Part shown: positions 32,238 through 64,000 of the stretch, one piece after another
Layout: every line of letters begins with the position of its first letter
Numbering within the stretch: the first letter of the stretch is position 1
From: Heterodontus francisci
Lineage: Eukaryota
NCBI RefSeq assembly: GCF_036365525.1
Contig: NC_090378.1
Location: 118,467,593-118,531,592 of the forward strand
Reading direction: 5' to 3'
DNA: 64,000 nt
Made by a program: the position numbers and the translations under genes
The notes under the pieces: model-generated
Databases searched by the model: none
What the model was told of the DNA's origin: nothing
Seen by the model: the letters and a program-made list of their open reading frames with translations, nothing else

Positions 32238-32239
32238 CT

Positions 32240-37842: not shown

Positions 37843-39403
37843 CAGGGATGTCCAACCTTTTCGTGTCAGGGGCCAGATTACAATTTTTACCCTCCAGTAG
37901 GGGGCCAGTGAGAACATTTCGGACGATAAAGGCATTAAAAATGTATCCTTGTATGAAAACTGTAACAAATGTGCATTTTTATGAAGAAGCTTTAAATGAG
38001 AAGTAATTTATTGACTTACTTTCTCATTACTATGTTGAACATTGATTTAGTGACCTACCTGACATTGTTTTTGCTTGCATTAATACTCAATCTCTGCCCA
38101 CACACTTGACGTAGCGATGCAGTGTATTCCAGAATGATGTCCATGTGTCAGAGAGATATTGATCTTTCTTCCTCTCTCCTCTTGCTCTCTGTATCTCTCT
38201 GTCTCTCTTTCCCCCCTCCATCTCTCTCTCCCCCTCTCAGTCCCACCCTCTCCCCTACCTCTGTCTCCCCACTCTCTCTATCAGTCTCCCTCTGTCTGTC
38301 CCACTATCCCCTCTCTCTGTCTCTCTCTCTCCCTCTCTCTCTGCCCCTTCTTTCTCTTACTCCCTGCTCTCTTTCTCTGTTTGTCTCTCATTCCCTCCTC
38401 CTCACTGCCTGCTCCCCAGTCCCTGATCCCTGCTCCCCACCCTCCACTTCCCACTCTCCACTGCCCACTCTCCACTGCCCACTCTCCTCTCCCCACTACC
38501 CACACTCCACTCCCCACTCCACGCTCTCCACTCCCCACTGTCCGTTCTCCACTCCCCACTCCACGCCTCTACTCCCCACTGTCCGTTCTCCATTCCCACT
38601 CCACGCTCTCCACTCCCCACTGTCCTTTCTCCACTCCCCATTCCACGCTCTCCACTCCCCACTGTCCGTTCTCCACTCCACGCTCCCCACTCCCCACTGT
38701 CCGTTCTCCACTCCACGCTCTCCACTCCCCACTGTCCGTTCTCCACTCCCCACTCCACGCTCTCCACTCCCCACTGTCCGTTCTCCACTCCCCACTCCAC
38801 GCTCTCCACTCCCCACTGTCCGTTCTCCACTCCCCACTCCACGCTCTCTACTCCCCACTGTCCGTTCACCACTCCCCACTCCACGCTCTCCACTCCCCAC
38901 TGTCCTTTCTCCACTCCCCATTCCACGCTCTCCACTCCCCACTGTCGGTTCTCCACTCCACGCTCCCCACTCCCCACTGTCCGTTCTCCACTCCACGCTC
39001 TCCACTCCCCACTGTCCGTTCTCCACTCCCCACTCCACGCTCTCCACTCCCCACTGTCCGTTCTCCACTCCCCACTCCACGCTCTCTACTCCCCACTGTC
39101 CGTTCACCACTCCCCACTCCACGCTCTCCACTCCCCACTGTCCGTTCTCCAATCCCCACTCCACGCTCCACTCCTCGCTTTCCACTCCCCGCCCTACAAT
39201 TCCGGCTCCCCTGTCTCTGCTGCCCATTCCCCATCTGTTCATTCTCCATCAATGTGGATTACAGAGACAGGATGTGAATGACACTCTCCCGCTGGGCACA
39301 GCCACGTTGTGTGGGTCTGGGATCCTCACAAAAATAGAGCTGCCCACCGAAGTGCTTTGCAGGGCTGAAGTCAGGCCCGTGGGCCGTATGCTGGAAAACC
39401 ATA
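37843..39403. mobile_element. hAT-Charlie-like non-autonomous element containing a minisatellite
   Basis: Left end CAGGGATGTCCAACCTTTT; right end GGCCCGTGGGCCGTATGCTGGAAAACC (degenerate TIR); TSD not resolved. Confidence 0.55.
38160..39230. repeat. Pyrimidine-rich tract plus 42/35-bp (CCACTCC-based) minisatellite
   Basis: Unit CCACTCCCCACTGTCCGTTCTCCACTCCCCACTCCACGCTCT; 14-aa periodicity in the ORF track. Confidence 0.92.
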
Positions 39404-39497: not shown

Positions 39498-41890
39498 GCC
39501 ACACCTACAGACAGTACTGGGTAACACACTCAAACTCAGAGATACACACCTACAGACAGTACTGGGTAACACACCCACACTCAGAGATACACACCTACAG
39601 ACAGTACTGGGTAACACACTCAAACTCAGAGATACACACCTACAGACAGTACTGGGTAACACACCCACACTCAGAGATACACACCTACAGACAGTACTGG
39701 GTAACACACCCACACTCAGAGATACACACCTACAGACAGTACTGGGTAACACACCCACACTCAGAGACACACACCTACAGACAGTACTGGGTAACACACC
39801 CACACTCAGAGACACACATCTACAGACAGTACTGGGTAACACACTCAAACTCAGAGACACACACCTACAGACAGTACTGGGTAACACACTCAAACTCAGA
39901 GACACACACCTACAGACAGTACTGGGTAACACACTCAAACTCAGAGACACACACCTACAGACAGTACTGGGTAACACACTCAAACTCAGAGATACACACC
40001 TACAGACAGTACTGGGTAACACACCCACACTCAGAGATACACACCTACAGACAGTACTGGGTAACACACCCACACTCAGAGACACACACCTACAGACAGT
40101 ACTGGGTAACACACCCACACTCAGAGACACACATCTACAGACAGTACTGGGTAACACACTCAAACTCAGAGACACACACCTACAGACAGTACTGGGTAAC
40201 ACACTCAAACTCAGAGACACACACCTACAGACAGTACTGGGTAACACACTCAAACTCAGAGATACACACCTACAGACAGTACTGGGTAACACACTCAAAC
40301 TCAGAGATACACACCTACAGACAGTACTGGGTAACACACTCAAACTCAGAGACACACACCTACAGACAGTACCGGGTAACACACTCAAACTCAGAGATAC
40401 ACACCGACAGACAGTACTGGGTAACACACTCAAACTCAGAGACACACACCGACAGACAGTTCTGGGTAACATACTCAAACTCAGAGACACACACCTACAG
40501 ACAGTACTGGGTAACACACTCACACTCAGAGACACACACCTACAGACAGTACTGGGTAACACACTCACACTCAGAGACACACACCTACAGACAGTACTGG
40601 GTAACACACCCACACTCAGAGACACACACCTACAGACAGTACTGGGTAACACTCCCACACTCAGAGACACACACCTACAGACAGTACTGGGTAACACACC
40701 CACACTCAGAGACACACACCTACAGACAGTACTGGGTAACACACCCACACTCAGAGATACACACCTACAGACAGTACTGGGTAACATACCCACACTCAGA
40801 GATACACACCTCCAGACAGAACTGGGTAACACACCCACACTCAGAGATACACACCTACAGACAGTACTGGGTAACACACCCACACTCAGAGATACACACC
40901 TCCAGACAGAACTGGGTAACACACCCACACTCAGAGATACACACCTACCGACAGTACTGGGTAACTCACCCACAATCAGAGTTACACACCTATAGACAGT
41001 ACTGGGTAACACACTCAAACTCAGAGACACACACCTACAGACAGTACAGGCTAACACACCCAAACTCAGAGATACACACCTCCAGACAGAACTGGGTAGC
41101 ACACCCACACTCAGAGATACACACCTACCGACAGAACTGGGTAACACACTCAAACTCAGAGATACACACCTACAGACAGTACTGGGTAACACACTCAAAC
41201 TCAGAGACACACACCTACAGACAGTACTGGGTAACACACCCACACTCAGAGACACACACCTACAGACAGTACTGGGTAACACACCCACACTCAGAGATAC
41301 ACACCTACAGACAGTACTGGGTAACATACCCACACTCAGAGATACACACCTCCAGACAGAACTGGGTAACACACCCACACTCAGAGATACACACCTACAG
41401 ACAGTACTGGGTAACACACCCACACTCAGAGATACACACCTCCAGACAGAACTGGGTAGCACACCCACACTCAGAGATACACACCTACCGACAGAACTGG
41501 GTAACTCACCCACAATCAGAGATGCACACCTCCAGACAGTACTGGGTAACACACTCAAACTCAGAGACACACACCTACAGACAGTACTGGGTAACACACT
41601 CAAACTCAGAGACACACACCTACAGACAGTACTGGGTAACACACCCACACTCAGAGACACACACCTGCAGACAGTACTGTTTAACACACACACACTCAGA
41701 GACACACACCTGCAGACAGTACTGGGTAAGACACATACTCAGAGACACGCACCTACAGACAGTACTGGGTAACACACCCACACTCAGAGACACACACCTA
41801 CAGACAGTACTGGGTAACAGACCCATTCTCAGAGGAACCCACCAAATGACTGCACTGTGTAATACACACATACTTAGACATACACACCTA
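39498..41890. repeat. 45-bp minisatellite, left sub-array (ACACCTACAGACAGTACTGGGTAACACACYCAMACTCAGAGAYAC)
   Basis: Unit read directly; 15-aa periodicity. Confidence 0.97.
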
Positions 41891-41904
41891 CTGAGAGTAC
41901 TGGA

Positions 41905-42335
41905 TAGCTATGAAGAGAGACTGGATAGGCTAGGGTTGTTTTCCTTAGAGCAGAGAAGGCTGATGGAGGACCTGATTGAGGTATATAAAATTATGAGGTG
42001 CATTGATAGGATAGATAGGAAGAAACCTTTTGCCTTAGTGGAGGGGTCAATAACCAGTGTGCATAGATTGAAGCTAAGAGGCAGGAGGCTTAGAGGAAAA
42101 GAATTTTCACCCAGAGGGTGGTGCGAATCTGGAATGCACTGCCTGAACACTTGGTAGAGGCAGGAACCCTCACAACATTTAAGATGTATTTAGATGAGCA
42201 CTTGAAATGCCATAGCATACAAGGCTACGGGCCAAGTGCCAGAAAATGTGATTAGAATAGATAGGTGCTTGATGGTTGGCAAAGACACGATGGGCTGAAG
42301 GGCCTGGTTCTGTGCTGTATAACTCTATGATTCTA
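41905..42335 (+). mobile_element. CR1 3' fragment inserted in the 45-bp array
   Basis: SYEERLDRLGLFSLEQRRLMEDLIEVYKIM; tail TGTGCTGTATAACTCTATGATTCTA. Confidence 0.9.
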
Positions 42336-43540
42336 TAACACACCCACACTCAGACTCACACACCTACAGACAGTACTGGGTAACCCACACACACTCAGAG
42401 ACACACACCTACAGACAGGACAGGGTAACCCACACAAACTCAGACACACACACCTACAGACAGTACTGGGTAACCCACACACACTCAGAGACACACACCT
42501 ACAGACAGGACAGGGTAACCCACACACACTCAGACACACACACCTACAGACAGTACTGGGTAACCCACACACACTCAGAGACACACACCTACAGACAGGA
42601 CAGGGTAACCCACACACACTCAGACACACACAACTACAGACAGTACTGGGTAACCCACACACACTCAGACACACACACCTACAGACAGTACTGGGTAACC
42701 CACACACACTCAGAGACACACACCTACAGACAGGACAGGGTAACCCACACACACTTAGACACACACACCTACAGACAGGACAGGGTAACCCACACACACT
42801 CAGACACACACACTTACAGACAGTATAGGGTAACCCACACACACTCAGACACACACACCTACAGACAGCACAGGGTAACCCACACACACTCAGACACACA
42901 CACCTACAGACAGTACTGGGTTACCCACACACACTCAGACACACACATCTACAGACAGTCCAGGGTAACCCACACACACTCAGATACACACACCTACAGA
43001 CAGTACAGGGTAACCCACACACACTCAGACACACACACCTACAGACAGTACTGGGTAACCCACACACACTCAGACACACACACTGACATACAGTCCTGGG
43101 TAACCCACACACACTCAGACACACACACCTCCAGACAATACAGGGTAACCCACACACACTCAGACACACACACCTACAGACAGTACAGGGTAACCCACAC
43201 ACACTCAGACACACACACCTACAGACAGTACAGGGTAACCCACACACACGCAGACACACACACCTACAGACAGTACAGGGTAACTCACACACACACAGAC
43301 ACACACACCTACAGACAGTACTGTGTAACCCACACACACTCAGACACACACACCGACGTACAGTACTGGGTAACCCACACATACTCAGACACACACACCT
43401 CCAGACAATACAGGGTAACCCACACACATGCAGACACACACACCTACAGACAGTACAGGGTAACCCACACACACTCAGACACACACACCGAACAGACAGT
43501 ATTGGGTAACCCACACACACTCCGAAACACACACCTACAG
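42336..43540. repeat. 45-bp minisatellite, right sub-array (CACACACTCAGACACACACACCTACAGACAGTACWGGGTAACCCA)
   Basis: Unit read directly; a variant of the left array. Confidence 0.96.
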
Positions 43541-44743: not shown

Positions 44744-45072
44744 CTACACACATTCTGATCTGCTCACACTCTTACTGAGGGGAGAGGACAGGGTCTCGTG
44801 GGTGAGGGCACAGGAGAAGCGGGCGTTGGACTCCCAGTCAGAGCCAGAGAGGGTCAGCAGGCTGCTGACACTGTAGGTGCTGTCCGAAGCTCGCAGGTAA
44901 TTGCTGGTCTGAACTCCGGCCGAAATGGCTGCACCGTCCTTCTTCCACTCCACCCCCACTTCATCGGGATAGAAGTGATCGGCAAGGCACACCAGGGTGG
45001 CAGTGCCCTTGGCCTTGACCTCCTCCGGCGAGGGGGGCATCAGGGTCAGTGTGGGTTGAGACTTCTCTCGGC
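44744..45072 (-). CDS. IGKC: Immunoglobulin light-chain constant exon, kappa type (chondrichthyan type III/NS4-like)
   Basis: Polypyrimidine tract plus CAG acceptor (45073-45075), phase 1. Translates to (S)REKSQPTLTLMPPSPEEVKAKGTATLVCLADHFYPDEVGVEWKKDG..YSVSSLLTL..W..FSCALTHETLSSPLSKSVSRSECV*. C1-set Cys/Trp/Cys and the penultimate interchain Cys are intact, with no stops. Confidence 0.96.
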
Positions 45073-45104
45073 CTGAAAGAGAAGAGAAAAACTGTTAATC
45101 ACTG

Positions 45105-45345
45105 CATGTTTGTGTATTTCTGTGTTCTATTTGTATATTTTTTGCTCTCTGTATATATTTGTGTGTTTTATGTATATATTTGTGTCTTTTGTCGGTATAT
45201 TTGTGTGTCCTCTGTATATATTTGTGTGTTTCATGTATTTATTTGTGTGTTCTGTCTGTACATTTGTGTATTCTCTGTGTATATTTGTGTGTTCTATGTG
45301 TATATTTATGTGTATGTTTCTGTGGGTGTTTCTGTGTTTGGATAT
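45105..45345. repeat. Low-complexity (TGTA/TGTG) tract near the C acceptor
   Basis: Read directly. Confidence 0.85.
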
Positions 45346-45534
45346 GTCACATCAGATAACAGACAGCTGAGTTAATGAACTACGGCTGGTGTTGAATCGT
45401 TAGAAATGAGCACCATCACTTCTTAATTTGCCTCGCTTGCTAGGTTTAGTCTAAAATACAAAGACAGTGGATGGTTTGATGTTCAACTGGTTAAATTGTG
45501 TTCGACTGCTCTTGGAAGTATGATATGGTAGTTT

Positions 45535-46375
45535 TTTTTATTCATTCATGGGATGTGGGCGTCGCTGGCCAGGCCAGCATTTATTGCCCATCACTAATAG
45601 CCCTTGAGAAGGTGGTGGTGAGCTGCCTTCTTGAACTGCTGCAGTCCATGTGGGGTAGGTACACCCACAGTGCTGTTAGGCAGGGAGTTCCAGGATTTTG
45701 ACCCAGTGACAGTGAAGGAACGGCGATATAGTTCCAAGTCAGGATGGTGTGTGGCTTGGAGGAGAACTTGCAGGTGTTGGTGTTCCCATACAACTGCTGG
45801 CCTTTCCTCCTAGGTGGCCAGCCTTTGACCTGCTCTTGTAGCCACAGTATTTACAGGGCTACTGCAGTTCAGGTTCTGGTCAATGGTAACCCTCAGGATG
45901 TTGATAGTGGGGGATTCAGCGATCGTAATGCCATTGAATGTCAAGGGGAGATGGTTAGATTCTTTCTTATTTGAGATAGTCATTGCCTTTCACTTGTGTC
46001 ACGCGAATGTTACTTGTTACTTATCAGCCCAAGCGTGGACAGTGTCCAGGTTTTGCTGCATTTCTAGATAGTCTGTTTCCGTTTCTGTGGATTCGCGAAT
46101 GGTGCTGAAGGTTGTGCAATCATCAGCGAACATCCCCTCTTCTGACCTTATGGTGGAGGGAAGGTCATTGATGAAGCAGCTGAAGATGGTTGGGCCTAGG
46201 ACACTATGCTGAGGAACTCCTGCAGTGACGTCCTGGAGCTGAGATGATTGACCTCCAACAACCACAGCTATCTTCCTTTGCGCTAGGTATGACTCCAAAC
46301 AGTCGAGAGATTTCCCCCTGATTCACACTGACTCTAGTTTTGCTCGGGCTCCTTGATTCCAGACTCAAATGCTGT
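45535..46375 (-). mobile_element. Second-family CR1-like LINE fragment in the J-C intron
   Basis: AGVPQHSVLGPTIFSCFINDL..MFADD; same 3' end as the element at 28953. Confidence 0.85.
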
Positions 46376-46379
46376 CTTG

Positions 46380-49300
46380 ATGACAGTTATTACTGAAATG
46401 AGTCTGAAAGAAGGGCAGGAATGGCAGCTCAATATTCCTGATACTGAGTTTCCCAACGGGATAGAGAGGGAGAGAAAAAAGGAGAAGGGTTTCACAATAT
46501 TAGTCAAAAGAAAAAATCGCAGCTGTGAGGAGGGATGATATTCAAGCAGGATCATCGAATGAGGACATTTGAATGAACGTAGGAACAAAAAAGGGGCAAT
46601 CACATTGCTGCACTATATATAGACCAGGGGTCGGTAACCTTTATTACCTGAAGAGACTGTTTTCAAAAATATTACCTAAAATAAAAACTACTGGCAGTGT
46701 CAAGACCAAAATTCAGCATTTCTAAACCAAATACCTTCTAAATTGCCAAGTGTCTCTGGTAGAATGCACACTTTGTATATATAATAAATAAAATACATGT
46801 ATTGAATTTATGTATCAATAGAAAAAAGTCAAAATCAGAATAGGTTTCACTCTGAATTATTGCATTTTTTTGACTTGTTTTTGTATAATTTTGTCAGTGA
46901 AGTCAAAATTTTAAAAAAAAATTGAAATTCAGATGTGCAGAATTAAGACAATTTTTTCAGCTATTGATTCTCGTAATAAAAAAGAAGTTTCTAATAGCAG
47001 AATAATTTATCATCTCAGTGATATTAGAAACAATAATGGTCACAAACATAAAAGCTGTTCCTCCAATGGAAGCTGTACCACTCAAACAAGTTCATTTAGA
47101 CAATGATGATGCTTTTCATTTAAATAATCATTTGAAACTATAAAGTACAACATAATGATTAGCCTTTTATCCCCACAATAAAAACACAGTTTACTTTCCT
47201 TGACTGAATTTTTTCGGCCTTTTTCATGTTAATGTGATCCAACTGGAAAAGGTTGGCAGCTGTAAATGAGCTGTTAAAGAGTCACATGTGGCTCCGGAGT
47301 CGCAGGTTCCAGACTCCTGCTATCGACCCTCAAACAGTCAGAGGGAGAGAGAAGAGCAAATGTGTCGGCAAATTACTGAAAAGTGCAGAAACAACAGGCC
47401 AGTAATAGGAGGGGATTTCAACTTTCCAAAAATTAACTGGGATAAATTCAGTATAAAAGGTACAGAGGGCGCAGAATTCCTAAAATACATTCGGGAGAAC
47501 TTTTCTCATCAGTAGAAAGGCCAACAAGAGAAGATACAGTTCTGGACTTAGTTTTCAGGAATGAATCTGGGCAGGTGGAAGGGGATCAATGTGAGAGTGT
47601 TTTAGTGGCAGTGATTATAATTCAGTTAGATTTAGAGCAGTTATAGAAAAGGATAAAGATGGACCAAGAGTAAATGTTTTAAACTGGGGAAAGGCCAATT
47701 TTACTAAGCTGAGATGTGATTTGTCAGAATTAGACTGGAAACAGCTACTTGAAGGTAAATCAGTGTCAGAGCAGTGGGAGGCATTCAAGGAGGAGATAGT
47801 GAGGGCTCAGAACAAACATGTTCCCACAAAGAAAAAGGGTGAGACTCCCAAATCTCCATTTACCGCAGATGGTAAAGAGCATACACAGTAGGATAAGGTA
47901 CAAAAGGGAAACTTATATCGGATACTGAGATCTTGATACTGCAGAAAACCTGGAGAAGTGTAGAGAGTTCAGGGGTGAAATTGAAAAGGAAATTAGGGAA
48001 ACAAAGAGAGGACATGAAAAAATATGAGCTAGTAAAATCAAGGAAAACCCAAAGATGTTTAATAAATACATAAAGAGCCGGAGAATCACTAAGAAAAGAG
48101 CGGGGTAAATTGGAGTCCAAAAACCTAACCTGTGTGTGGAGGCGGAGGATGTGGACATGTTTCTGAATGAATACTTTGTGCCTTTTTTCACAGAGAGTGA
48201 CAAAGCAGACATTGTAGTGAAGGAGGAGGAGTGTAAAATCTTGGATGGGATAAACTTAGTGAGGGAGGAAATATTAAGGTGTTTCACATCCTTGAAAATG
48301 GATAAATCACCAGGCCCAGGTGAAATGTATCCCAGGCTGCAAAAGAAGCAATGGAAGAAATAGCGGAGGCTCTGATCCTCATTTTCCAATTCTCTCTGGT
48401 TAAAGGCATGGTGCCTGAGGACTGGAGGACTGCTAATGTTCTACTGTTGTTTAAAAAGGAAAGAATGGATGGACCAAGTAATTACAGATCAGTCAGCATA
48501 ACCTCGGCAGTGGGAAAATTATTGGAAAAAGTTCTGAGAGACAGTAAAAACCATCATTTAGAGAAGCACGGGATTAATTCAGGACAGTCAGCATGGATTT
48601 GTTAAGGGAAGTTTGTGTCTGACTAACGATTACATTTCATGAGGAGGTTACAAGGAGTGTCAAAGTGGGCGTCATGTTTGAAAGAGTCTACATGGATTTT
48701 AGCAAGGCCTTTGATAAGATCCCACATGGCAGACTGGTCAGAAAATTAAAAGCCCATGGGATCCAAGGAAAAGTGGGAAATTGGATCAAAAATTGAGTCA
48801 GTGACAGGAAGCAAAGTTTTATTGTCAACGGGTGTTTTTGTGAGTGGAAAGCTGTTTTCAGTGGGGTTCTGCAGGGCTCAGTACTGGGTCCACTGCTGAT
48901 TATAGTATCTTTCAATGATTTAGATTTAAATGGAAGGGGTATTAAGAAGTTTGCAGATGATACAAAAATAGGCCTTGCGGTTGATAATGAGGAAAAAGGC
49001 TGTAGACTGCAGGAAGATATCAATGGACTGGTCAGGTGGGCAGAAAAATAGCAAATGGAATTCAGTCCAGAGAAATGTGAGGTAATGCATTTGGGGAGGA
49101 CAAACGAGGCAAAGGAATATCCAATAAATGGGATGATACTGAGAAGTGTAGAGGAACTGAGGGACCTTGGAGTTCATGTCCACAGATCCCTGAAGGTAGC
49201 AGGACAGCTCGATAAGGTGGTTAAGAAGGCTTACGGGATGCTTGCCCTTATTCGCTGAGGCCTGGAGTATAAGGGTAAGGAGGTTATGCCAGAACTGTAG

Positions 49301-49870
49301 AAAACACTAGTTAGACCACAGCTAGAAAACTGTGTACAGTTCTGGTCACCACATTACAGGAAGGATGTGATCAAACAAGAGGGGGTACAGAGGAGATTTA
49401 CGAGGATGTTACCAGGAATGGAGAATTTTACCTATGAGGAAAGATAGGATCGGCTGGGATTGTTATCTCTGGAACAGAGGAGACTGAGGGGAGATTTAAT
49501 TGAGGTGTATAAAATTATGAGGGGCCTAGATAGAGTGGATAGGAAGGACCTACTTCCCGCAGCAGAGAGGTCAATAACCCAGCGGCATAGATTTAAATTA
49601 ATTGGTGGAAGGATGAGAGGTGAATTGAGGAGTAATATTTTCACCCAGAGGGTGTTGGGGGTCTGGAACTCACTGCCTGAAAGGGTGGTAGAGGCAGAAA
49701 CTCTCATCACATTGAAAAAACACTTGGATATGCACTTGAGGTGCCGAAACCTACAGGGATATGGGAATAAGAGCTGGAAAGTGGGATTAGGTTTGTTAAC
49801 TCATTTTCAGCTGGCATGGACACCATGGGCCGAATGGCCTCATCTGCATTGTAAATCTTTCTATGTTTCT
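46380..49870 (+). mobile_element. Degenerate CR1-clade LINE ORF2 (endonuclease plus RT) in the J-C intron
   Basis: VIGGDFNFPKINW, KSPGPG, NYRSVS, FSKAFDKIPH, FADD, FTQRVLGVWNSLP, CR1 3' tail. Confidence 0.9.
46625..47319. mobile_element. hAT-Charlie-like non-autonomous DNA transposon inserted in the CR1
   Basis: TIRs CAGGGGTCGGTAACCT / AGGTTCCAGACTCCTG; imperfect 8-bp TSD ATATAGAC / CTATCGAC; AT-rich interior. Confidence 0.8.
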
Positions 49871-50309
49871 CTGTTTAAACGTCTCTAATGAAGGTTTATC
49901 ACCAATTCAGCACTGAAATGGTTAATAGTAAGAGTGTTTAAAGACTCAGTGTCCCTTTAAGACACTGTTAACCTGACAGGAAGCTCGAACTATAGATCAG
50001 TCTATCCGGAGGAAACAGGCTCAGTGTTAACAAATCTCAGATCACACACACATCCGGAGAACTTTCTCTGAGAACACTGGAGCAGACTTGTATCAACACA
50101 TGTCAGAAAGGATTCATGTTGGGTGTCGGTGTAGAAGGTTTTCGATTTCATTTAAAACCTTCTTGTCCAACACTGGGGTGAGGTCAAGGGTGAGGTTATA
50201 ATCAGTCTCAGTGTACTGGGATCAGGCAGGGTCACTGCTCCAAATGATCCCATGAACCCTGGAAGGTGAGAGTGTGCGCGAGGGTCAGGATCAGGAGCCT
50301 CCAAACTCA

Positions 50310-50695
50310 AAGAAAGACTTGCATTTCTATAGTGCCTGTCACCACCTCAGGATGTCCCAAAGTGTTTTACGGCCAATTGTGCACAGCAAGATCCCAGACA
50401 GCTGAGTGATAATGAGCAGATAATCTGATTTTCAGTGCTGTTGGTTGAGTGATAAACATTGTCCAGAACACCGAGGAGAATTCCCCTGCTCTTCTAATAG
50501 TGCAGTGGGATCCTTTACATCCACCTGAGAGGGCAGACGTCAGTTTGTCTCAACTGAAAGACAGCACCTCTGACAATGCAGCACTCCCTCAATACTGCAC
50601 TGCAGTGTCAGTCTGGATTATGTGCTCCAGCCTCTGGAGTGGGACCTGAAGCCACGACATTCTGACTCAGAGGTGAGAGTGCTACCCACTGAGGC
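50310..50695 (-). mobile_element. tRNA-derived Deu-domain SINE (SacSINE1-like); a second partial copy at ~51105-51305
   Basis: tRNA-like head on the minus strand (CTCAGTGGGTAGCACTC..); core GACAGCACCTCTGACAATGCAGCACTCCCTC; tail AGAAAGACTTGCATTT. Family name recalled, not searched. Confidence 0.7.
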
Positions 50696-51309
50696 AACAC
50701 TAACACCTCACAGTCGAATAGCCTGCCATTCTCACCCTCCCGGCTCACACTTGGAGGAATGAGGCCACTTGGGGAGGGTGGAGCTGTGCCCCAGCCAGAG
50801 ATAGTGCCTTCAGGAGAGAGATGGAGAGCAGATTGTGGGAGACCTGTAGTCTAGAGGGGTGACATTTAACCAGTCGATGGCAGGTGCTGAGCCCTTTCCC
50901 CGTAAGTATTATGTAAGTCGATGGGGAAAGTGGGAGGGGCACTAGAGTAACACCTTTGTTGCTGCTGAAACTCTTGCTATCTGCTCAGTCATGTCTAATA
51001 AACACACAGACAAATCAGACAAACATTAGTCGGTTTTATGTGGATTTTCTGCTGGGTTCAGCTTTAATCAACAGGGTATTGTGGGAGCTCCCGGTTAATA
51101 AAAGGAAAAGAAAGACTTGTATTTATGTCGGGTATTTCACACCTCAGGACCTCCCAAAGTCATTTACAGACAATGAAGGACTTGTTTAAAGAGCAGTCAC
51201 TGTTTGAATGCAGGAAATGTGGCAGACAATTTGTGCACAGCAAGATCCCACAAACAGCAATGAGGTAAATGAACATTTTCAGTGACATCGGTTCAGAGAT
51301 AAATATCAG

Positions 51310-52215
51310 TGTCATGCAGGCCCCCACCTGCCAAGAATGAGGCACATTAATTTCACCATATGAACACTGCTTTTTAATCTGTTGCTGGAGTAAAGAAATA
51401 ACTTGTTTTTAAAAAACAACACCAGGCCCTTGACTGGAAAGACATTGGCATAATAACAGACAGAACTTGGAAGGGACAAAAGACCATTTCCTGACAAATT
51501 CAATCCACAATGGACTTTTGATTACCAGACATTGAGGATGGAGGAGCTCCCATTCCAGCTTGACTGCTAAGATGGCCGACTACACCATCGGACATGGCCA
51601 GACCAGTTTAGTCACATGACTAACTGGCTGTTGTAGTTTTTTGAATTTGAACTTGCCACAGAGAATTTGAACTCAGAAAGCTGTTTGCTCCTGGACTGAA
51701 AAGACTTTTCATGGCTGGCTTGCCACTGTCTCTCTCCCATTGGCTTTCATCTCTCTGACCAGCTTCAGGAATCATTGAAGACATATGAACCGCAAGAGGG
51801 AAAAGTCTCCCACAGTGAACAAGGTTTAAGAAGAATACTGGGCCCCAATGAAAAGCAACACCTACCGACAAGCAAGGACTACAGTGAGCTCGAAGCACAG
51901 TAACAAAAACTCTCTTCAGAGATTGCCTCAAACCTCTGCACTTTATTTTTCTTCTGCTCTTTTCTGTCTCTATTTGCATGTGTGTATCGCATATGCATGC
52001 TAGCATGGGGCATGGCGTGTATCCGTACGCGTTAACTGAATTAGAGTTTTAGTTTAAGTTTTAATAAATTTCACCTTTCTTCTTTAAACCTAAGAAAACC
52101 TGTTTGTGCTCATTTCTTTGCCTCACACAGTGTGTTTCAAATTAAATCTTGTTACAGTAAGACCAGGTGAAGGCTGTGAAAGACCCCTAGAGACTTTCAT
52201 CACCTGGTCAGAACA
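51310..52215 (+). mobile_element. Solo LTR (~906 bp) in the J-C intron
   Basis: TGT...ACA termini, internal AATAAA (~52063), no coding capacity; the adjacent SINE copy stops at its left end; TSD unclear. Confidence 0.65.
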
Positions 52216-52752
52216 ATCGACCTGAACTTGACCCAAAGACAAAGCAACTGAGAGTCTCCCCAAAACCCTGGAACACTGAAGCCACTGGATTGGGAGCCCT
52301 GCTGTCGCTGTTTGTCATCAGAACTTTGACAAGAGATAAGCAGGGAGTGGACAGAGCAGAGTTAAAGCTGGGGGAGGTGGGACCTTGGTGTCTCACTGTG
52401 CTGGTGCTGAGATCAGTTCTATCAGAGACTGTGACAGAGACCCAGAGCTCACACTGAGACTGGCAGGAGTCTAGTGAGGGATTTCACTCCATGGAGCAGG
52501 AATGTGACCACAGTCTGCAAACGTCCAGATCTCCTCTACACACTCGGTAAAAGTTGGTTACTTATATCTTGCTGGTTAAAGGGGGAATGTAACTAAAGAA
52601 ATACAGCTGGGCACCCTGTTATACACAGTGCTCTTCAATGAACCATTTCATTGACTGCAGCTCCTTACTAACACCTTCCACTATTCAGCATTTGTGTTTT
52701 CGAAAGTTTCAGTATTTAAAGGATTAATAACGGAGGATTGAGGTTTACTTAC

Positions 52753-52787
52753 TCAGTCTGAGCTTGGTTCCTTTACCGAACGTAAAC
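52753..52787 (-). CDS. IGKJ: Immunoglobulin kappa-type J segment, unrearranged
   Basis: GTTTACGTTCGGTAAAGGAACCAAGCTCAGACTGA encodes FTFGKGTKLRL(S) with the FGXG motif. GTAAGT donor at 52747-52752; the phase matches the C exon (A+GC gives Ser). Confidence 0.95.
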
Positions 52788-52826
52788 CACACTGACAGCT
52801 TCCAGTGCAGGGGCTGTACAATATCC
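52788..52826 (+). promoter_or_regulatory. 23-bp-spacer recombination signal sequence of J
   Basis: Heptamer CACACTG (52788-52794), 23-nt spacer, nonamer ACAATATCC (52818-52826); consensus is CACAGTG / ACAAAAACC. Confidence 0.93.
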
Positions 52827-52829
52827 TCT

Positions 52830-53690
52830 GCTCTCTGTTTCACTCACTCACTCTCACCCTCTCTCTGTCTTTCACTGTCACTGTGTCTCTTTCTCTGTCA
52901 CTCTTTGCCTGTGTGTATGTGTGTCTCTGTCTCTCACACTCTCTCTATATATATCTATTTGTCTCTGTCTCTATGTGTGCTTCTGTCTGTCTCTGTCTGT
53001 GTGTGTCATTCACAGTGTGTCACACTCTGTCTCTGCTACTTTGGGTTTCTCTCACATTCTGTCTCTCTCTCATTGTTTTCTCTCACTCTGTCTCTTTCAC
53101 TCTCTCATTATGTCCCTCTCTCTCACTCCCTGTTACTCTGTCTCTGTCACACGCTCTCTCTCTCTCACACTCTCTCTCAATCTGTCTCTCTCTTTCTCTC
53201 ACTCACTCTGTCTCTCTTTCTCACTCTCTCTCACTCCCTCACTCTGTCTCTCTTTTTCTCCCTCTCACTGTCTCTCTCTTTCTTTCTCTCTCACTCTCTC
53301 TCTCTTTCTCCCTCTCACTCTCTCATTCTGCCTCACTCTGTCTCTCTNNNNNNNNNNNNNNNNNNNNNNNNNNNNNNNNNNNNNNNNNNNNNNNNNNNNN
53401 NNNNNNNNNNNNNNNNNNNNNNNNNNNNNNNNNNNNNNNNNNNNNNNNNNNNNNNNNNNNNNNNNNNNNNNNNNNNNNNNNNNNNNNNNNNNNNNNNNNN
53501 NNNNNNNNNNNNNNNNNNNNNNNNNCTCTCATTCAGTCTCACTCTGTCTCTCTTTTTCTCCCTCTCACTATCTCTCTCTTTCTCTCTCTCTCACTCTCTC
53601 ACTTTGTCTCCCTTTCTCACTCTGTCTCTCTTTTTCTCCCTCTCACTCTCTCTCTCTTTCTCTCTCTCTCACTTTCTCTCTCTCTGTCTC
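52830..53690. repeat. CT-rich low-complexity tract with a 178-N assembly gap (53348-53525)
   Basis: Read directly. Confidence 0.95.
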
Positions 53691-54474
53691 TAACAGACTG
53701 GGATGAATTCTCCCGGTGCCATGGAGACGGGGTTCTCATTTGGAGGTTGGGCAGGACTGGGAAAAATACGACGAGCCGTGTCAACATGGCTCCCTGACAC
53801 ATTCCCGCCTCCGGGTTACTTTCCCATGGGTGTACTGGGAACCGGTCATCTGCTGCCTCCATGGAGATGGGCAGACAATTCGAGCAATGAAGTTCACATT
53901 TAGGGGCCATTTTTGAGCCGGTGCTGGTATTTTACCAACGTCGGAGCGGCCTCCCCACCCCCGAGTGCGGAGGCCACCAGCTCAATGGAGGAGGCCTCCC
54001 GGCAGCAGGCCTGGGGACCATCGGAGACGGAGACTCTATGTCCCAATGACAGAGCTACAGGGATGAAAAGCTGCAGTCCCGCCTGTTAATAATCCTGTGG
54101 AGGAGTTTCCTAACCCTAACCCTCTTCAACCTGATGGCCCAACTGGCTTCAGCCCTTTTTATTTTACTATTCCTCTACAGGCAGCCAAGGGCGTCTCCAT
54201 GTTGAGGGGCCCTCACTCTCGCCTGCCTGTTTCAGCAGGGCCCACCTCTCCCGGTGGAGCTGCCAGCCTGACATCACTGTGGGCCCTCTGATTGGGCCTG
54301 CAGGCTCGGGAGCCTGACTGCCATCATTAATAGGACAGTGAGTGTGGAGGTGACCAATTAAGAGGCTGCCTCCCAGAAAGTTGCTCCGGCGAGTGCTGAT
54401 GACATGGGCAGGCTCGGGACCCTCATATAGGCCAGAAGTCAGAGTCCCAATGTCCACTGGGCCAACCAGCCATC

Positions 54475-54732
54475 TCTCTCTCTCACGCTGTCCCTCTTGT
54501 GCTCTTTCCCTCTGTCTATCTCACTATCTCCCTCTCTCTCTTTCTCTCATTCTCTTTCTCTCACTCTTTCTCTCTCTCTATCTGTCTCTCTCTAGCACTT
54601 TCTCTCTCTCTCCTACTGTCTCTCTTTATCTCTCTCTCTCTCTCTCACTGTCTCTCTTTCTGTCATTCTCTCTCTCCCACTGTCTCTGTTTCTCTCTCTC
54701 TCCTGCTGTCTCTGCTTCACTCTCTCTCTCTG
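54475..54732. repeat. CT-rich low-complexity tract
   Basis: Read directly. Confidence 0.9.
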
Positions 54733-54984
54733 TTTGAATTCCATGCTGCCGTGCTTGGGAAAGTTGGGAATTCTACTTGTCGATGATAAATCTTCCAGCT
54801 GCTCTTCCCACCACATCAGATGGAAAAACCTGGAGCCACTCAATTCCTGGAAAATGAAAATCTCCCAGCTAACCGAGCTCACCTGCCTGTGCCCTGGAAA
54901 AAAGGGGAGGAGTGTTTCTGTAAATGTGATGTTTCTGTTGCTGACTCTGCTCTTCCTCATGGACCATTTGAAAACAGTGAGTTT

Positions 54985-55420
54985 CAGAGTCGGTGGATCA
55001 TGTCTACATGGAGTGGGAGAGGTTGTGGCCCCTGTTCCATTATTTGAAGGGGCTGCTCCTCATCCTCTGGTTCCAATTCAGGCCCACACTCCTGATCTTT
55101 GGCCACCCAGTGCAGAGGGGACTGGGCAGGTTGGAGGCCCCTCCTCGTGGGTCTGCTCCTGGGCCTGGCCAAGGTGTCCATCCACAGGCCCGAGTTGGAT
55201 GGGACCCATGGGGGTGGTGGCACTGGCTGCCAGTCTCTCTACCATGGCATTGTCCCCACCCGGGTGGCCCTGGAGAAGGAGCAGGGGGTGTCTGCTGGGT
55301 CACTTGAGGCCTTCAGGCTGCAGTGGGCACCACAGGGACAGGAGTGTGTAGTGGATCGTGGAAATAACATCAGGCTTTAATTTGTTCAGTTTGCTTTCTA
55401 TTTATGATTTCAGTTTTATT
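54985..55420 (+). mobile_element. Tx1-clade LINE 3' fragment
   Basis: HVYMEWERLWPLFHYLKGLLLILWFQFRPTLLIFGHP, homologous to 34530-34900. Confidence 0.85.
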
Positions 55421-55844
55421 CATTTCGACACTTTTCTAAATTGGATTTTGATTGGTGAAAATTGTGTCATCCAGATTGTCCAATCAGATGATAAGAAACC
55501 TGTTTCCATAGTAACTGACCTGGGGTGTCTGACCTGGGATGGGGGGTCAATAATAATGATCAATAATTAGTCTGTGCTCATGAAGCGACTCCACGAGAAC
55601 CCAGAGAGAATCGAATGAAGCAAAATGTCAAATCTCCAGAGCTGTGAGATTCTCACTGATGAAGACAGCAGCTCCTCGTCCTCTCTAAACTCCTCCATCC
55701 TTTCTCAATTCCTCACACCGTTCAGGGGAATGTTTCTGTCAACACTCTCATCGACACATGTGGCAGCAATGCACAAAACAGCAAATATTTCCCAGATAGA
55801 TAAGACAGGAGATTGAAGCAACTGTTTTAATAGAAGGTCTGTTT

Positions 55845-58800
55845 ATTATATAATAAATATAACTGTGGGATGTGTCGGTACAGGAGGTGGGACTGTGTGT
55901 CCATTATTAACTATTATATATAACTGTGGGATGTGTCAGTACAGGAGGTGGGACTGTGTGTCCATTATTATATATTATATATAACTGTGGGATGTGTCAG
56001 TGCAGGAGGTGTGACTGTGTGTCCATTATTATATATTATATATAACTGTGGGATGTGTCGGTACAGGAGGTGGGACTGTGTGTCCATTATTAACTATTAT
56101 ATATAACTGTGGGATGTGTCAGTACAGGAGGTGGGACTGTGTATCCATTATTATATATTATATATAACTGTGGATGTGTCAGTAGTGAAATTGGGACTGT
56201 GTGTCCATTATTATATATTATATATAACGGTGGATGTGTCAGTAGAGAAATTGGGACTGTGTGTCCATTATTATATATTATATATAACTGTGGGATGTGT
56301 CAGTGCAGGAGGTGGGACTGTGCGTCCATTATTATATATTATATATAACTGTGGGATGTGTCAGTGCAGGAGGTGGGACTGTGTGTCCATTATTATATAT
56401 TATATATAACTGTGGGATGTATCAGTGCAGGAGGTCGGACTGTGCATCCATTATTATATATTATATAGAACAGTGGAACGTGTCAGTCGAGGAGGTGGGA
56501 CTGTGCGTCCCTTATTATATATTATCTAGAACTGTGGGATGTGTCAGTGCGGGAGGTGGGACTGTGCGTCCCATATTATATATTATATATAACAGTGGAA
56601 CGTGTCAGTCGAGGAGGTGGGACTGTGCGTCCCTTATTATATATTATATATAACTGTGGAACGTGTTAGTCGAGGAGGTGGGACTGTGCGTCCCTTATTA
56701 TATATTATATATAACTGTGGAACGTGTCAGTCGAGGAGGTGGGGCTGTGCGTCCCTTATTATATATTATATATAACTGTGGAACGTGTTAGTCGAGGAGG
56801 TGGGACTGTGCGTCCCTTATTATATATTATATATAACTGTGGAACGTGTCAGTCGAGGAGGTGGGACTGTGCGTCCCTTATTATATATTATATATAACTG
56901 TGGAACGTGTCAGTCGGGTAGGTGGGACTGTGCGTCCATTATTATATATGATATATAACTGTGGAACGTGTCAGTCGAGGAGGTGGGACTGTGTGTTCAT
57001 TATTATATATTATCTATAACTGTGGAATGTGTCAGTGCGGGAGGTGGGCTGTGAGTCCATTATTATATATTATATATAAATGTGGAACATGTCAGTCGGG
57101 TAGGTGGGACTGTGCGTCCATTATTATATATTATATATAACTGTGGGATGTGTCAGTGCGGGAGGTGGGACTGTGTGTCCATTATTATATATTATCTATA
57201 ACTGTGGGATGTGTCAGTGCGGGAGGTGGGACTGTCTGTCCATTATTATATATTATATATAACTGTGGGATGTGTCAGTCCAGGAGGTGGGACTGTGTGT
57301 CCATTATTATATATTATATATAACTGTGTGATGTGTCAGTGCGGGAGGTGGGACTGTGTGTCCATTATTATATATTATATATAAATGTGGAACATGTCAG
57401 TCGGGTAGGTGGGACTGTGCGTCCATTATTATATATTATATATAACTGTGGGATGTCAGTACAGGAGGTGGGACTGTGTGTCCATTATTATATATTATAT
57501 ATAACTGTGGGATGTGTCAGTGCGGGAGGTGGGACTGTGTGTCCATTATTATATATTATATATAACTGTGGAACGTGTCAGTCGAGGAGGTGGCACGGTG
57601 CGTCCATTAATATATATTATATATATCTGTGGGATGTGTCAGTACAGGAGGTCGGACTGTGTGTCCATTATTATATATTATATATAACTGTGGGATGTGT
57701 CAGTGCGGGAGGTGGGACTGTCTGTCCATTATTATATATTATATATAACTGTGGAACGTGTCAGTCGAGGAGGTGGCACGGTGCGTCCATTAATATATAT
57801 TATATATATCTGTGGGATGTGTCAGTACAGGAGGTGGGACTGTGTGTCCATTATTATATATTATATATAACTGTGGGATGTGTCAGTGCGGGAGGTGGGA
57901 CTGTGTGTCCATTATTATATATTATATATAACTGTGGGATGTGTCAGTACAGGAGGTGGGACTGTGTGTCCATTATTATATATTATATATAACTGTGGAA
58001 CGTGTCAGTCGAGGAGGTGGGACTGTGCGTCCATTATTATATATTATATATAACTGTGGGATGTGTCAGTTCGGGAGGTGGGACTGTGTGTCCATTATTA
58101 TATATTATATATAACTGTGGGATGTGTCAGTGCGGGAGGTGGGACTGTGTGTCCATTATTATATATTATATATAACTGTGGGATGTGTCAGTGCGGGAGG
58201 TGGGACTGTGTGTCCATTATTATATATCATATATAAATGTGGGATGTGTCAGTGCAGGAGGTGGGACTGTGTGTCCATTATTATATATTATATATAACTG
58301 TCGGATGTGTCAGTGCGGGAGGTGGGACTGTGTGTCCATTATTATATATTCTAGATAACTGTCGGATGTGTCAGTACAGGAGGTGGGACTGTGTGTCCAA
58401 TATTATGTCTTATATATAACTGTGGGATGTGTCAGTGCGGGAGGTGGGACTGTGTGTCCATGAACATATATTATATATAACTGTGGGATGTGTCAGTACA
58501 GGACATGGGACTGTGAGCCCATTATTATATATTCTAGATAACAGTGGGATCTGTCAGGACAGGAGGTGGGGCTGTCTGTCCAATATTATATATTATATAT
58601 AACTGTGGGACGTGTCAGTCCAGGAGGTGGGACTGTGTGTCCATTATTATATATTAGATATAACTGTGGGATGTGTCAGTACAGGAGGTGGGACTGTGTG
58701 TCCATTATTATATATTATATATAAATGTGGGATGTGTCAGTGCAGGAGGTGGGACTGTGTGTCCATTATTATATATTATATATAACTGTGGGATGTGTCA

Positions 58801-61800
58801 GTGCGGGAGGTGGGACTGTGTGTCCATGAACATATATTATATATAACTGTAGGATGTGTCAGTACAGGACGTGGGACTGTGAGCCCATTATTATATATTC
58901 TAGATAACAGTGGGATGTGTCAGTACAGGGGGTGGGACTGTGTGTCCATTATTATATTTTATATATAACTGTGGGATGTGTCAGTGCAGGAGGTGGGACT
59001 GTGTGTCCATTATTATATATTATATATAACTGAGGGATGTGTCAGGACAGGAGGTGGGACTGTGTGTCGATTATTATATATTATATATAACTGTGGGATG
59101 TGTCAGAGCGGGAGGTGGGATTTTGTGTCCATTATTATATATAATATATAAATGTGGGATGTGTCAGTGCAGGAGGTGGGACTGTGTGTCCATTATTATC
59201 TATTATATATAACTGTGGGATGTGTCAGTGCGGGAGGTGGGACTGTGTGTCCATTATTATATATTATATATAACTGTGGGATGTGTCAGTGCGGGAGGTG
59301 GGACTGTGTGTCCATTATTATATATTATATATAACTGTGGGTTGTGTCAGTAGAGGAGGTGGGACTGTGAGTCCATTATTATATATAATATATAATTGTG
59401 GGATGTGTCAGTGCGGGAGGTGGGACTGTGTGTCCATTATTATATATTATATATAACTGTGGGTTGTGTCAGTAGAGGAGGTGGGACTGTGAGTCCATTA
59501 TTATATATAATATATAATTGTGGGATGTGTCAGTGCGGGAGGTGGGACTGTGTATCCAATATTATATATTATGTATAACTGTGGGATGTGTCAGTGCAGG
59601 AGGTGGGACTGTGAGTCCATTATTATAAATAATTTATAATTGTGGGATGTGTCAGTGCAGGAGGTGGGACTGTGTGTCCAATATTATATATTATGTATAA
59701 CTGTGGGATGTGTCAGTGCAGGAGGTGGGACTGTGTGTCCAATATTATATATTATATATAACTGTGGGATGTGTCAGTGAGGGAGGTGGGACTGTGTGTC
59801 CATTATTATATATTATATATAACTGTGGAACGTGTCAGTGTGGGAGGTGGGACTATGCGTCCATTATTATATATTATATATAACTGTGGAATGTGTCAGT
59901 CGAGGAGGTGGGACTGTGCGTCCATTATTATATATTATATATAACTGTGGAACGTGTCAGTCGAGGAGGTGGGACTGTGCGTCCCTTATTATATATTATA
60001 TATAACTGTGGAAAGTGTCAGTCGAGGAGGTGGGACTGTGTGTCCATTATTATATATTATATATAACTGTGGGATGTGTCAGTGCGGGAGGTGGGACTGT
60101 GTGTCCATTATTATATATTATATATAACTGTGGGATGTGTCAGTACAGGAGGTGGGACTGTGTGTCCATTATTATATATTATATATAAGTGTGGAACGTG
60201 TCAGTCGAGGAGGTGGGACTGTGCGTCCATTATTATATATTATATATAACTGTGGGATGTGTCAGTTCGGGAGGTGGGACTGTGTGTCCATTATTATATA
60301 TCATATATAAATGAGGGATGTGTCAGTGCAGGAGGTGGGACTGTGTGTCCATTAATATATATTATATATAACTGTCGGATGTGTCAGTGCGGGAGGTGGG
60401 ACTGTGTGTCCATGATTATATATTCTAGATAACTGTCGGATGTGTCAGTACAGGAGGTGGGACCGTGTGTCCAATATTATGTCTTATATATAACTGTGGG
60501 ATGTGTCAGTGCGGGAGGTGGGACTGTGTGTCCATGAACATATATTATATATAACTGTGGGATGTGTCAGTACAGGACGTGGGACTGTGAGCCCATTATT
60601 ATATATTCTAGATAACAGTGGGATCTGTCAGGACAGGAGGTGTGGCTGTCTGTCCAATATTATATATTATATATAACTGTCGGATGTGTCAGTACAGGAG
60701 GTGGGACTGTGTGTCCAATATTATGTCTTATATATAACTGTGGGACGTGTCAGTCCAGGAGGTGGGACTGTGTGTCCATTATTATATATTAGATATAACT
60801 GTGGGATGTGTCAGTACAGGAGGTGGGACTGTGTGTCCATTATTATATATTAAATATAACTGTGGGATGTGTCAGTACAGGAGGTGGGACTGTGTGTCCA
60901 TTATTATATATTATATATAAATGTGGGATGTGTCAGTGCAGGAGGTGGGACTGTGTGTCCATTATTATATATTATATATAACTGTGGGATGTGTCAGTGC
61001 GGGAGGTGGGACTGTGTGTCCATGAACATATATTATATATAACTGTGGGATGTGTCAGTACAGGACGTGGGACTGTGAGCCCATTATTATATATTCTAGA
61101 TAACAGTGGGATCTGTCAGGACAGGAGGTGGGGCTGTCTGTCCAATATTATATATTATATATAACTGTCGGATGTGTCAGTACAGGAGGTGGGACTGTGT
61201 GTCCAATATTATGTCTTATATATAACTGTGGGACGTGTCAGTCCAGGAGGTGGGACTGTGTGTCCATTATTATATATTAGATATAACTGTGGGATGTGTC
61301 AGTACAGGAGGTGGGACTGTGTGTCCATTATTATATATTAAATATAACTGTGGGATGTGTCAGTACAGGAGGTGGGACTGTGTGTCCATTATTATATATT
61401 ATATATAAATGTGGGATGTGTCAGTGCAGGAGGTGGGACTGTGTGTCCATTATTATATATTATATATAACTGTGGGATGTGTCAGTGCGGGAGGTGGGAC
61501 TGTGTGTCCATGAACATATATTATATATAACTGTGGGATGTGTCAGTACAGGACGTGGGACTGTGAGCATATTATTATATATTCTAGATAACAGTGGGAT
61601 GTGTCAGTACAGGGGGTGGGACTGTGTGTCCATTATTATATATTATATATAACTGTGGGATGTGTCAGTGCAGGAGGTGGGACTGTGTGTCCATTATTAT
61701 ATATTATATATAACTGAGGGATGTGTCAGGACAGGAGGTGGGACTGTGTGTCGATTATTATATATTATATATAACTGTGGGATGTGTCAGAGCGGGAGGT

Positions 61801-64000
61801 GGGATTTTGTGTCCATTATTATATATAATATATAAATGTGGGATGTGTCAGTGCAGGAGGTGGGACTGTGTGTCCATTATTATCTATTATATATAACTGT
61901 GGGATGTGTCAGTGCGGGAGGTGGGACTGTGTGTCCATTATTATATATTATATATAACTGTGGGATGTGTCAGTGCGGGACGTGGGACTGTGTGTCCATT
62001 ATTATATATTATATATAACTGTGGGTTGTGTCAGTAGAGGAGGTGGGACTGTGAGTCCATTATTATATATAATATATAATTGTGGGATGTGTCAGTGCAG
62101 GAGGTGGGACTGTGTGTCCAATATTATATATTATATATAACTGTGGGATGTGTCAGTGCGGGAGGTGGGACTGTGTGTCCATTATTATATATTATATATA
62201 ACTGTGGAACGTGTCAGTGTGGGAGGTGGGACTATGCGTCCATTATTATATATTATATATAACTGTGGAAAGTGTCAGTCGAGGAGGTGGGACTGTGTGT
62301 CCATTATTATATATTATATATAACTGTGGGATGTGTCAGTGCGGGAGGTGGGACTGTGTGTCCATTATTATATATTATATATAACTGTGGGATGTGTCAG
62401 TACAGGAGGTGGGACTGTGTGTCCAATATTATGTCTTATATATAACTGTGGAACGTGTCAGTGTGGGAGGTGGGACTATGCGTCCATTATTATATATTAT
62501 ATATAACTGTGGAAAGTGTCAGTCGAGGAGGTGGGACTGTGTGTCCATTATTATATATTATATATAACTGTGGGATGTGTCAGAGCGGGAGGTGGGACTG
62601 TGTGTCCATTATTATATATTATATATAACTGTGGGATGTGTCAGTACAGGAGGTGGGACTGTGTGTCCAATATTATGTCTTATATATAACTGTGGGACGT
62701 GTCAGTCCAGGAGGTGGGACTGTGTGTCCATTATTATATATTAGATATAACTGTGGGATGTGTCAGTACAGGAGGTGGGACTGTGTGTCCATTATTATAT
62801 ATTAAATATAACTGTGGGATGTGTCAGTACAGGAGGTGGGACTGTGTGCCCATTATTATATATTATATATAACTGTGGGATGTGTCAGTGCGGGAGGTGG
62901 GACTGTGTGTCCATGAACATATATTATATATAACTGTGGGATGTGTCAGTACAGGACGTGGGACTGTGAGCCCATTATTATATATTCTAGATAACAGTGG
63001 GATGTGTCAGTACAGGGGGTGGGACTGTGTGTCCATTATTATATATTATATATAACTGTGGGATGTGTCAGTGCAGGAGGTGGGACTGTGTGTCCATTAT
63101 TATATATTATATATAACTGAGGGATGTGTCAGGACAGGAGGTGGGACTGTGTGTCGATTATAATATATTATATACAACTGTGGGATGTGTCAGTACAGGA
63201 GGTGCGACTGTGTGTCCATTATTATTATTATATATAACTGTGGGATATGTCAGTGCAGGAGGTGGGACTGTATGTCGATTATTATATATTATATATAACT
63301 GTGGGATGTGTCAGAGCGGGAGGTGGGATTTTGTGTCCATTATTATATATAATATATAAATGTGGGATGTGTCAGTGCAGGAGGTGGGACTGTGTGTCCA
63401 TTATTATCTATTATATATAACTGTGGGATGTGTCAGTGCGGGAGGTGGGACTGTGTGTCCATTATTATATATTATATATAACTGTGGGTTGTCTCAGTAG
63501 AGGAGGTGGGACTGTGAGTCCATTATTATATATAATATATAATTGTGGGATGTGTCAGTGCAGGAGGTGGCACTGTGTGTCCAATATTATATATTATATA
63601 TAACTGTGGGTTGTGTCAGTAGAGGAGGTGGGACTGTGAGTCCATTATTATATATAATATATAATTGTGGGATGTGTCAGTGCGGGAGGTGGGACTGTGT
63701 ATCCAATATTATATATTATGTATAACTGTGGGATGTGTCAGTGCAGGAGGTGGGACTGTGTGTCCAATATTATATATTATGTATAACTGTGGGTTGTGTC
63801 AGTAGAGGAGGTGGGACTGTGAGTCCATTATTATATATAATATATAATTGTGGGATGTGTCAGTGCAGGAGGTGGGACTGTGTGTCCAATATTAAATATT
63901 ATATATAACTGTGGGATGTGTCAGTGCGGGAGGTGGGACTGTGTGTCCATTATTATATGTTATATATAACTGTGGAACGTGTCAGTGTGGGAGGTGGGAC
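55845..64000. repeat. 61-bp tandem satellite (ATATAACTGTGGGATGTGTCAGTGCAGGAGGTGGGACTGTGTGTCCATTATTATATATTAT), >130 copies, runs off the window end
   Basis: Unit read directly; it shifts by 1 nt per 60-nt line. Confidence 0.98.

Follow-up and report, generated by a model that had tools for sequence, protein, structure and literature searches.

How does an immunoglobulin (Ig) light-chain gene obtain its variable (V) segment when none lies nearby? The question is raised by a 64,000-nucleotide stretch of the horn shark (Heterodontus francisci) genome, hereafter the window (G000:C8:118467593-118531592, on NC_090378.1), which carries an intact kappa joining-constant (J-C) cassette. Its constant exon (44744..45072, minus strand) is open to a TAG stop, ending in SRSECV, and lies in phase with a single F-type J segment (FTFGKGTKLRLS; 52753..52787, minus strand) across a 7.68-kb GT..AG intron (45073..52752, minus strand; donor GT at 52752-52751, acceptor AG at 45074-45073). 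The J-C joint, 45071/52752 with CT..AC ends, recurs in contigs of all four probable RNA runs. The J is flanked by a 23-bp-spacer recombination signal sequence (23-RSS; 52788..52826, plus strand), read on that strand as CACACTG-23-ACAATATCC, with one heptamer and two nonamer mismatches to the consensus. Proteins labelled H. francisci kappa light chain-like match the C protein at 100% identity, a nurse shark light chain at 85% and kappa-labelled chains of other sharks at 83-90%. By its sequence, the gene is a split cluster of the kappa isotype (type III/NS4). A preliminary description of this DNA had reported such a J, with a 23-RSS and spliced in phase to an intact C, and the RSS and splice sites, the open frame and the RNA-contig joints bear it out. 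It had seen neither a V exon nor a 12-RSS; likewise, a six-frame motif scan of both strands of the 64-kb window found no V exon, and an RSS scan of both strands allowing up to three mismatches found no 12-RSS. The CT tracts (52848-54735), the sole run of N (178 N at 53348-53525) and the more than 8 kb of satellite that it had placed upstream of J were all located.

The missing V lies 30 kb beyond the window end, on the same strand as J-C. It was found by a V-set search of the genome. The open kappa V exon (C8:118562063-118562371, minus strand) has a 3′ end, QQTYSWQTAG, that is unique among 28 V segments. It is preceded by a leader exon (C8:118562558-118562606, minus strand), upstream of which stands an octamer-like ATTTACAT (C8:118562713-118562720, minus strand), and it is followed by a perfect 12-RSS, CACAGTG-12-ACAAAAACC (C8:118562035-118562062, minus strand). 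A 12-RSS on V facing a 23-RSS on J is the kappa light-chain configuration, and all 28 clusters described below show it. The two heptamers are 41,683 bp apart, about 80 times the ∼500 bp described for sharks. The window gene is a complete V-J-C cluster and not an orphan. Of the three options raised earlier, the expanded V-J interval stands. The orphan J-C falls with the V located 41.7 kb upstream and with V, J and C counts of 28:28:28. A V hidden in an undersized gap is no longer needed, and is contradicted by the J-to-array length, which is 3,055 bp here and 3,054-3,055 bp in four near-identical paralogues free of N. That the window itself holds no V would suit either discarded option; with a V 30 kb past its end, balanced counts and a spacer matching gap-free paralogues, we regard both as almost certainly wrong. 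A PDB search with this V returned only generic antibody chains among the matches listed. A public joined V-J-C kappa chain could not be assigned to a single cluster, since four tie at 88 identities (27 of 28 V compared).

The cluster is one of many. DNA searches, whose counts are lower bounds, located 28 V, 28 J and 28 C segments at 115.6-124.8 Mb of contig C8, which holds all 28 kappa clusters. The segments pair one to one in the same orientation, with 15 clusters on the minus strand followed by 13 on the plus strand. V, J and C alternate singly: the translocon layout, with several V upstream of one J-C, was not encountered, nor was the compact 250-500 bp V-J spacing, the minimum of the 28 being 7,537 bp, the maximum 216,649 bp and the median 48,950 bp. 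None of the 28 is germline-joined in the assembly. The J RSS heptamer and nonamer are identical in 27 of 28 clusters, the C exon is identical in 13, and the J type of the window cluster occurs in 7 of 28. The preliminary description had allowed that V-J distances of this size might prove typical of paralogous clusters; with a median of 49 kb they do, so this cluster is ordinary in its own genome, and it is the locus that is unusual relative to published sharks. Some clusters are near-copies of one another. Mirrored copies of a triplet, with V-J intervals of 51, 124 and 66 kb, have 97-99% of their 200-mers in common; with these included, that share was found in four of six pairs tested, and other pairs repeat on one strand. 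These are either recent segmental duplications or duplicated haplotypes, and the count of 28 could therefore include the latter.

Individual members of the locus show lesions. In the cluster with V at C8:117591891 the leader donor GT is changed to AT, and the J at C8:120123463 has the heptamer CAGTATG on the gene strand; judging from these letters, both clusters are possibly weak or dead. A degenerate kappa J also stands on another contig (G000:C2:125446252-125446356), with an RSS of CACGCTG plus ACAGTATCC, a GTAAAT donor, some 120 bp of GA-rich flank and repeat-like surroundings. Neither a V motif nor the satellite was found within 1.5 kb of it, and it is likely a true orphon J.

The V-J distance of 41.7 kb arises because a 61-bp minisatellite fills the interval. 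The satellite had earlier been noted as merely lying upstream of J; it does lie there, but the array itself produces the distance. In this cluster it runs uninterrupted for 38.6 kb in 633 copies, beginning 5 bp behind the V nonamer. Its J-side 8.2 kb occupies the window (55843..64000, minus strand) and continues past the window end to G000:C8:118562029. The remaining spacer, ∼3 kb of CT/GA tracts with the 178 N (52827..55842), has a counterpart of 2.7-5.4 kb in the paralogues. All 28 V-J intervals were examined at full length. Counted from the V heptamer, array sequence begins at base 33-41 in every one, and it stops 2.7-5.4 kb short of J. Together the arrays make up 1,469,696 of 1,588,014 bp (93%), or ∼24,000 units, with 55 to 3,396 per cluster, and the window's 178 N are the only ones in the 28 intervals. 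An exact 29-nt unit pattern has 5,532 matches in the 6.0-Gb genome, 5,500 of them inside the 28 intervals and none on the opposite strand; for an exact 35-nt pattern, 2,938 of 2,948 matches lie inside, in gene orientation. With only 32 and 10 matches elsewhere, the repeat is therefore nearly private to DNA that V-J joining deletes. As a control, nine other V-set loci were examined, of which only one was a split light chain, another a germline-joined lambda-like gene and another a tandem run of V with 23-RSS; the unit was found in none of the nine. The split light-chain cluster, on contig C36 and sigma-like by our reading of its sequence, has a V-J distance of ∼370 bp. On a small contig, five near-perfect 23-RSS stand on one strand within 10 kb (G000:C761:856600-866599), the leading one after a V exon of T-cell-receptor-like appearance, in a tandem V run.

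The arrays have a history of their own. Among 17,487 units counted, 3,029 are distinct, with a mean identity of 95% to the consensus, and the window array has at most 42% of its 200-mers in common with any other cluster. Retroelements, which we take to be of long and short interspersed element (LINE- and SINE-like) types, are inserted at fixed places, and some were duplicated together with the array. The interval of the V at C8:121515373 holds four 368-bp insertions 3-4 kb apart in one array, the first SINE-like, and the 217-kb array of the V at C8:124597842 holds three of 395 bp, the first LINE-like. Such repeated insertions were likely copied as the array grew, and could be used for dating array expansions. 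The AT-rich half of the unit contains a palindromic stem, TTATATA-TAA-TATATAA, and the insertions examined start in or beside that half. Locus-specific variable number tandem repeat (VNTR) arrays of vertebrates combine a short unit with variant-repeat patterns, a varying number of copies, inserted retroelements and nested duplications. The horn shark array shows all of these traits; it differs from such arrays in being confined to V(D)J-deleted DNA, 5 bp behind a nonamer, and in its ∼24,000 units. Further tandem arrays lie downstream of C, at 1-8008, 31002-32240, 38433-39168 and 39500-43540 of the window (units of 36, 34, 7/21 and 45 bp); on the other side of the cluster, ∼12-17 kb upstream of V, the 36-bp unit is met again. 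The locus is therefore minisatellite-rich in general.

Evidence that a V so distant from its J is used comes from one animal, in the contigs of its probable RNA runs; their RNA status was assigned by a tool, and exon-to-exon joints agree with it. Loose contig ends on the 5′ side of J spell a V complementarity-determining region 3 (CDR3). Three RNA runs cover the unique end of this V, beyond which kappa J letters follow at places 470, 473, 475 and 477. In the same runs the V RSS (443-466) is mostly at zero depth; a DNA run covers it, and no J join at this V was seen there among the matches listed. This V has been joined to a kappa J at varied points. Among the matches listed, all six readable V-unique junctions fit the J type of the V's own cluster, and the product of their chance shares is 0.01, a rough figure only because six junctions need not be independent. 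That its partner was its own J, 41.7 kb away, is likely but unproven. One loose end suggested a join of this V to a non-kappa, FGGGTK-like J. It proved to be a mixture of two contigs (agreement 0.61) whose 18-nt core has no match in the genome, and it was rejected.

Where the repeat came from is suggested by other species. Gene models that extend through the V RSS, from basking shark, cloudy catshark, and zebra, epaulette and bamboo sharks, carry the same motif behind the nonamer, for example TSIHTAPPPVLTH and TPIHTFPPPGLTHPTV, against TSIHTVPPPVLTHPTV in horn shark, and this motif is the first half of the unit. In the zebra shark model the J is reached 109 residues past the heptamer, which is 327 bp if no intron was called. 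Since other sharks have the motif, an inherited post-nonamer flank, duplicated in tandem, is the likely source of the unit. We consider it probable that the window gene is a complete, spliced kappa V-J-C gene whose V and J are separated by a 61-bp repeat grown in place, and that B cells delete the array when V joins its own J. On this account the motif would have been duplicated in tandem in an ancestral cluster, which was then multiplied by segmental duplication, after which each array would have changed length by unequal exchange and gained retroelements. As mammalian Igk does, the locus would bring the consensus V 12-RSS and the J 23-RSS together over tens of kilobases through looping or diffusion, and joining of V to its cluster's own J would delete the entire array. 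Since rearrangement removes it, we regard the array as something the locus tolerates and not as demonstrably selected.

Several points weigh against this account. The run data are contigs, and their RNA status is a tool's guess. Two of eight listed V-unique loose ends were low-agreement mixtures and were dropped, and the six junctions kept come from one animal and may not be independent. The own J type is common to 7 of 28 clusters and the identical C to 13, so joining in cis is not proven. Three further loose ends, at 486-488 (runs X1 and X2), carry a Y-type J. The letters ACACTC recur in them, which suggests a kappa V allele outside the 28 assembled; on the other reading, in which this V lost 15-17 nt by trimming, the three would be joins between clusters. 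The origin is argued from protein sequences of automatic gene models, and the array lengths come from one assembly.

If V segments joined the J of neighbouring clusters, the locus would be partly translocon-like. Distances alone would permit it, as those from V to own J (up to 217 kb) overlap those between clusters, for example 66 kb from the V at 117,013,476 to the next C, and the three 486-488 junctions with a Y-type J would fit. The six of six readable V-unique junctions that match the own J type, among the matches listed, argue against it, and joining between heavy-chain (IgH) miniloci is rare in nurse shark according to PMC2435157; we think such use improbable. A still smaller chance is given to array lengths or cluster number having been inflated by the assembly. 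Four of six pairs tested, the mirrored triplet among them, share 97-99% of 200-mers, as duplicated haplotypes would, and most arrays are longer than ordinary accurate reads. Against this stand the 3,029 distinct units among 17,487, the lack of gaps, the retroelements inserted at fixed places and in part copied with the array, and the window array's limit of 42% shared 200-mers with any other cluster. Even the shortest V-J interval is 7.5 kb, and assemblers collapse such arrays more often than they inflate them.

The array might also be a selected regulator, its length and RSS-like sites setting the rate of rearrangement or destruction per cluster and preventing joining in germ cells. The consensus unit has two heptamers matching at six of seven positions, CACAGTT and CACAGTC, which are oriented like the V RSS and converge with the J RSS. 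One falls into the register CACAGTT-23-ACACAGTCC. In these features the unit is equalled by 89 and 68 of 20,000 dinucleotide shuffles. As a 23-RSS, the unit has a heptamer starting with CAC and an exact 23-bp spacer. The nonamer of a functional RSS carries an A-tract; ACACAGTCC has none and departs at three positions, against two for the working J nonamer ACAATATCC. In all, 15,829 sites combine a 23-bp spacer with at most one heptamer and three nonamer mismatches, a four-mismatch level that is treated as a strong site in PMC11153149. The array is moreover kept in 28 of 28 clusters, none germline-joined, and nurse shark, with its 500-bp spacing, has joined genes (PMC2193156). The shuffle test, however, was made after the motif had been seen, and both heptamer-like words appear to be inherited with the post-nonamer motif, so that repeating the flank in tandem would by itself produce the register. 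The nonamer is weak, being without an A-tract; among the matches listed, which would miss most such joins, neither V nor J was seen joined to the array; and the 60-fold spread in copy number fits drift. A selected regulator therefore seems unlikely to us, if less so than translocon-like use. Marginally more doubtful is its fullest form, a built-in rheostat in which RSS-like decoys derived from the V flank, numbering hundreds to thousands in each cluster, would, through array length, set the chance and timing of V-J joining, aid light-chain exclusion and block germline joining. If true, satellite DNA would be used as a V(D)J regulator among 28 near-identical genes.

Set beside other shark Ig genes, this one belongs to the kappa isotype but lacks its compact spacing. 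In nurse shark NS4 (Ig kappa), V and J are 502-524 bp apart and germline-joined copies exist, and horn shark type III light chains were reported as all split (PMC2193156). The present clusters resemble these in having one V, J and C each, split and RSS-flanked V and J, somatic joining and, in 28 of 28, no joined copy; they differ in a V-J distance of 7.5-217 kb, 93% of it one minisatellite. A review gives the within-cluster segment spacing in elasmobranchs as 250-500 bp (PMC5192425), and for shark IgH the ∼400-bp spacing has been taken to mean that neither long-distance joining nor locus contraction occurs (PMC2435157). The minilocus model fits here insofar as there are many separate clusters, tens to hundreds of kilobases apart, with apparently intra-cluster joining; it rests on 250-500 bp, whereas here joins would span 15 to 430 times 500 bp (PMC2435157, PMC5192425). 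The accessible parts of PMC12227049 and PMC13433984 held nothing further on spacing. Mouse Igk likewise joins a V 12-RSS to a J 23-RSS over long distances, and RAG joins to convergent CAC sites occur there at low level, with sites of up to four mismatches treated as strong; it has more than 100 V for 4 J and CTCF-based elements (PMC11153149), in contrast to the horn shark clusters, where each V has a single J and the interval is mostly tandem array. A literature search, which left some nurse shark kappa papers uncovered and so does not establish absence from print, returned no report of kappa V-J intervals that are long or filled with satellite.

With segments described as 250-500 bp apart, shark Ig genes serve as the standard example of V(D)J recombination that does without long-range looping. 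The horn shark locus presents a kappa cluster whose V-J interval a minisatellite specific to the locus has lengthened 15 to 430 fold, and which is likely still used. Joining over tens of kilobases would mean that light chains in sharks can rearrange without short spacing. Among the 28 near-identical clusters of this locus the RSS hardly vary, and the main difference is the V-J distance of 7.5-217 kb. The clusters thereby form a natural distance series, in which at least the 41.7-kb cluster appears rearranged in RNA. This series bears on how distance and the density of cryptic RSS affect RAG joining, on loop extrusion at shark Ig loci, and on why some shark clusters become germline-joined and these do not.

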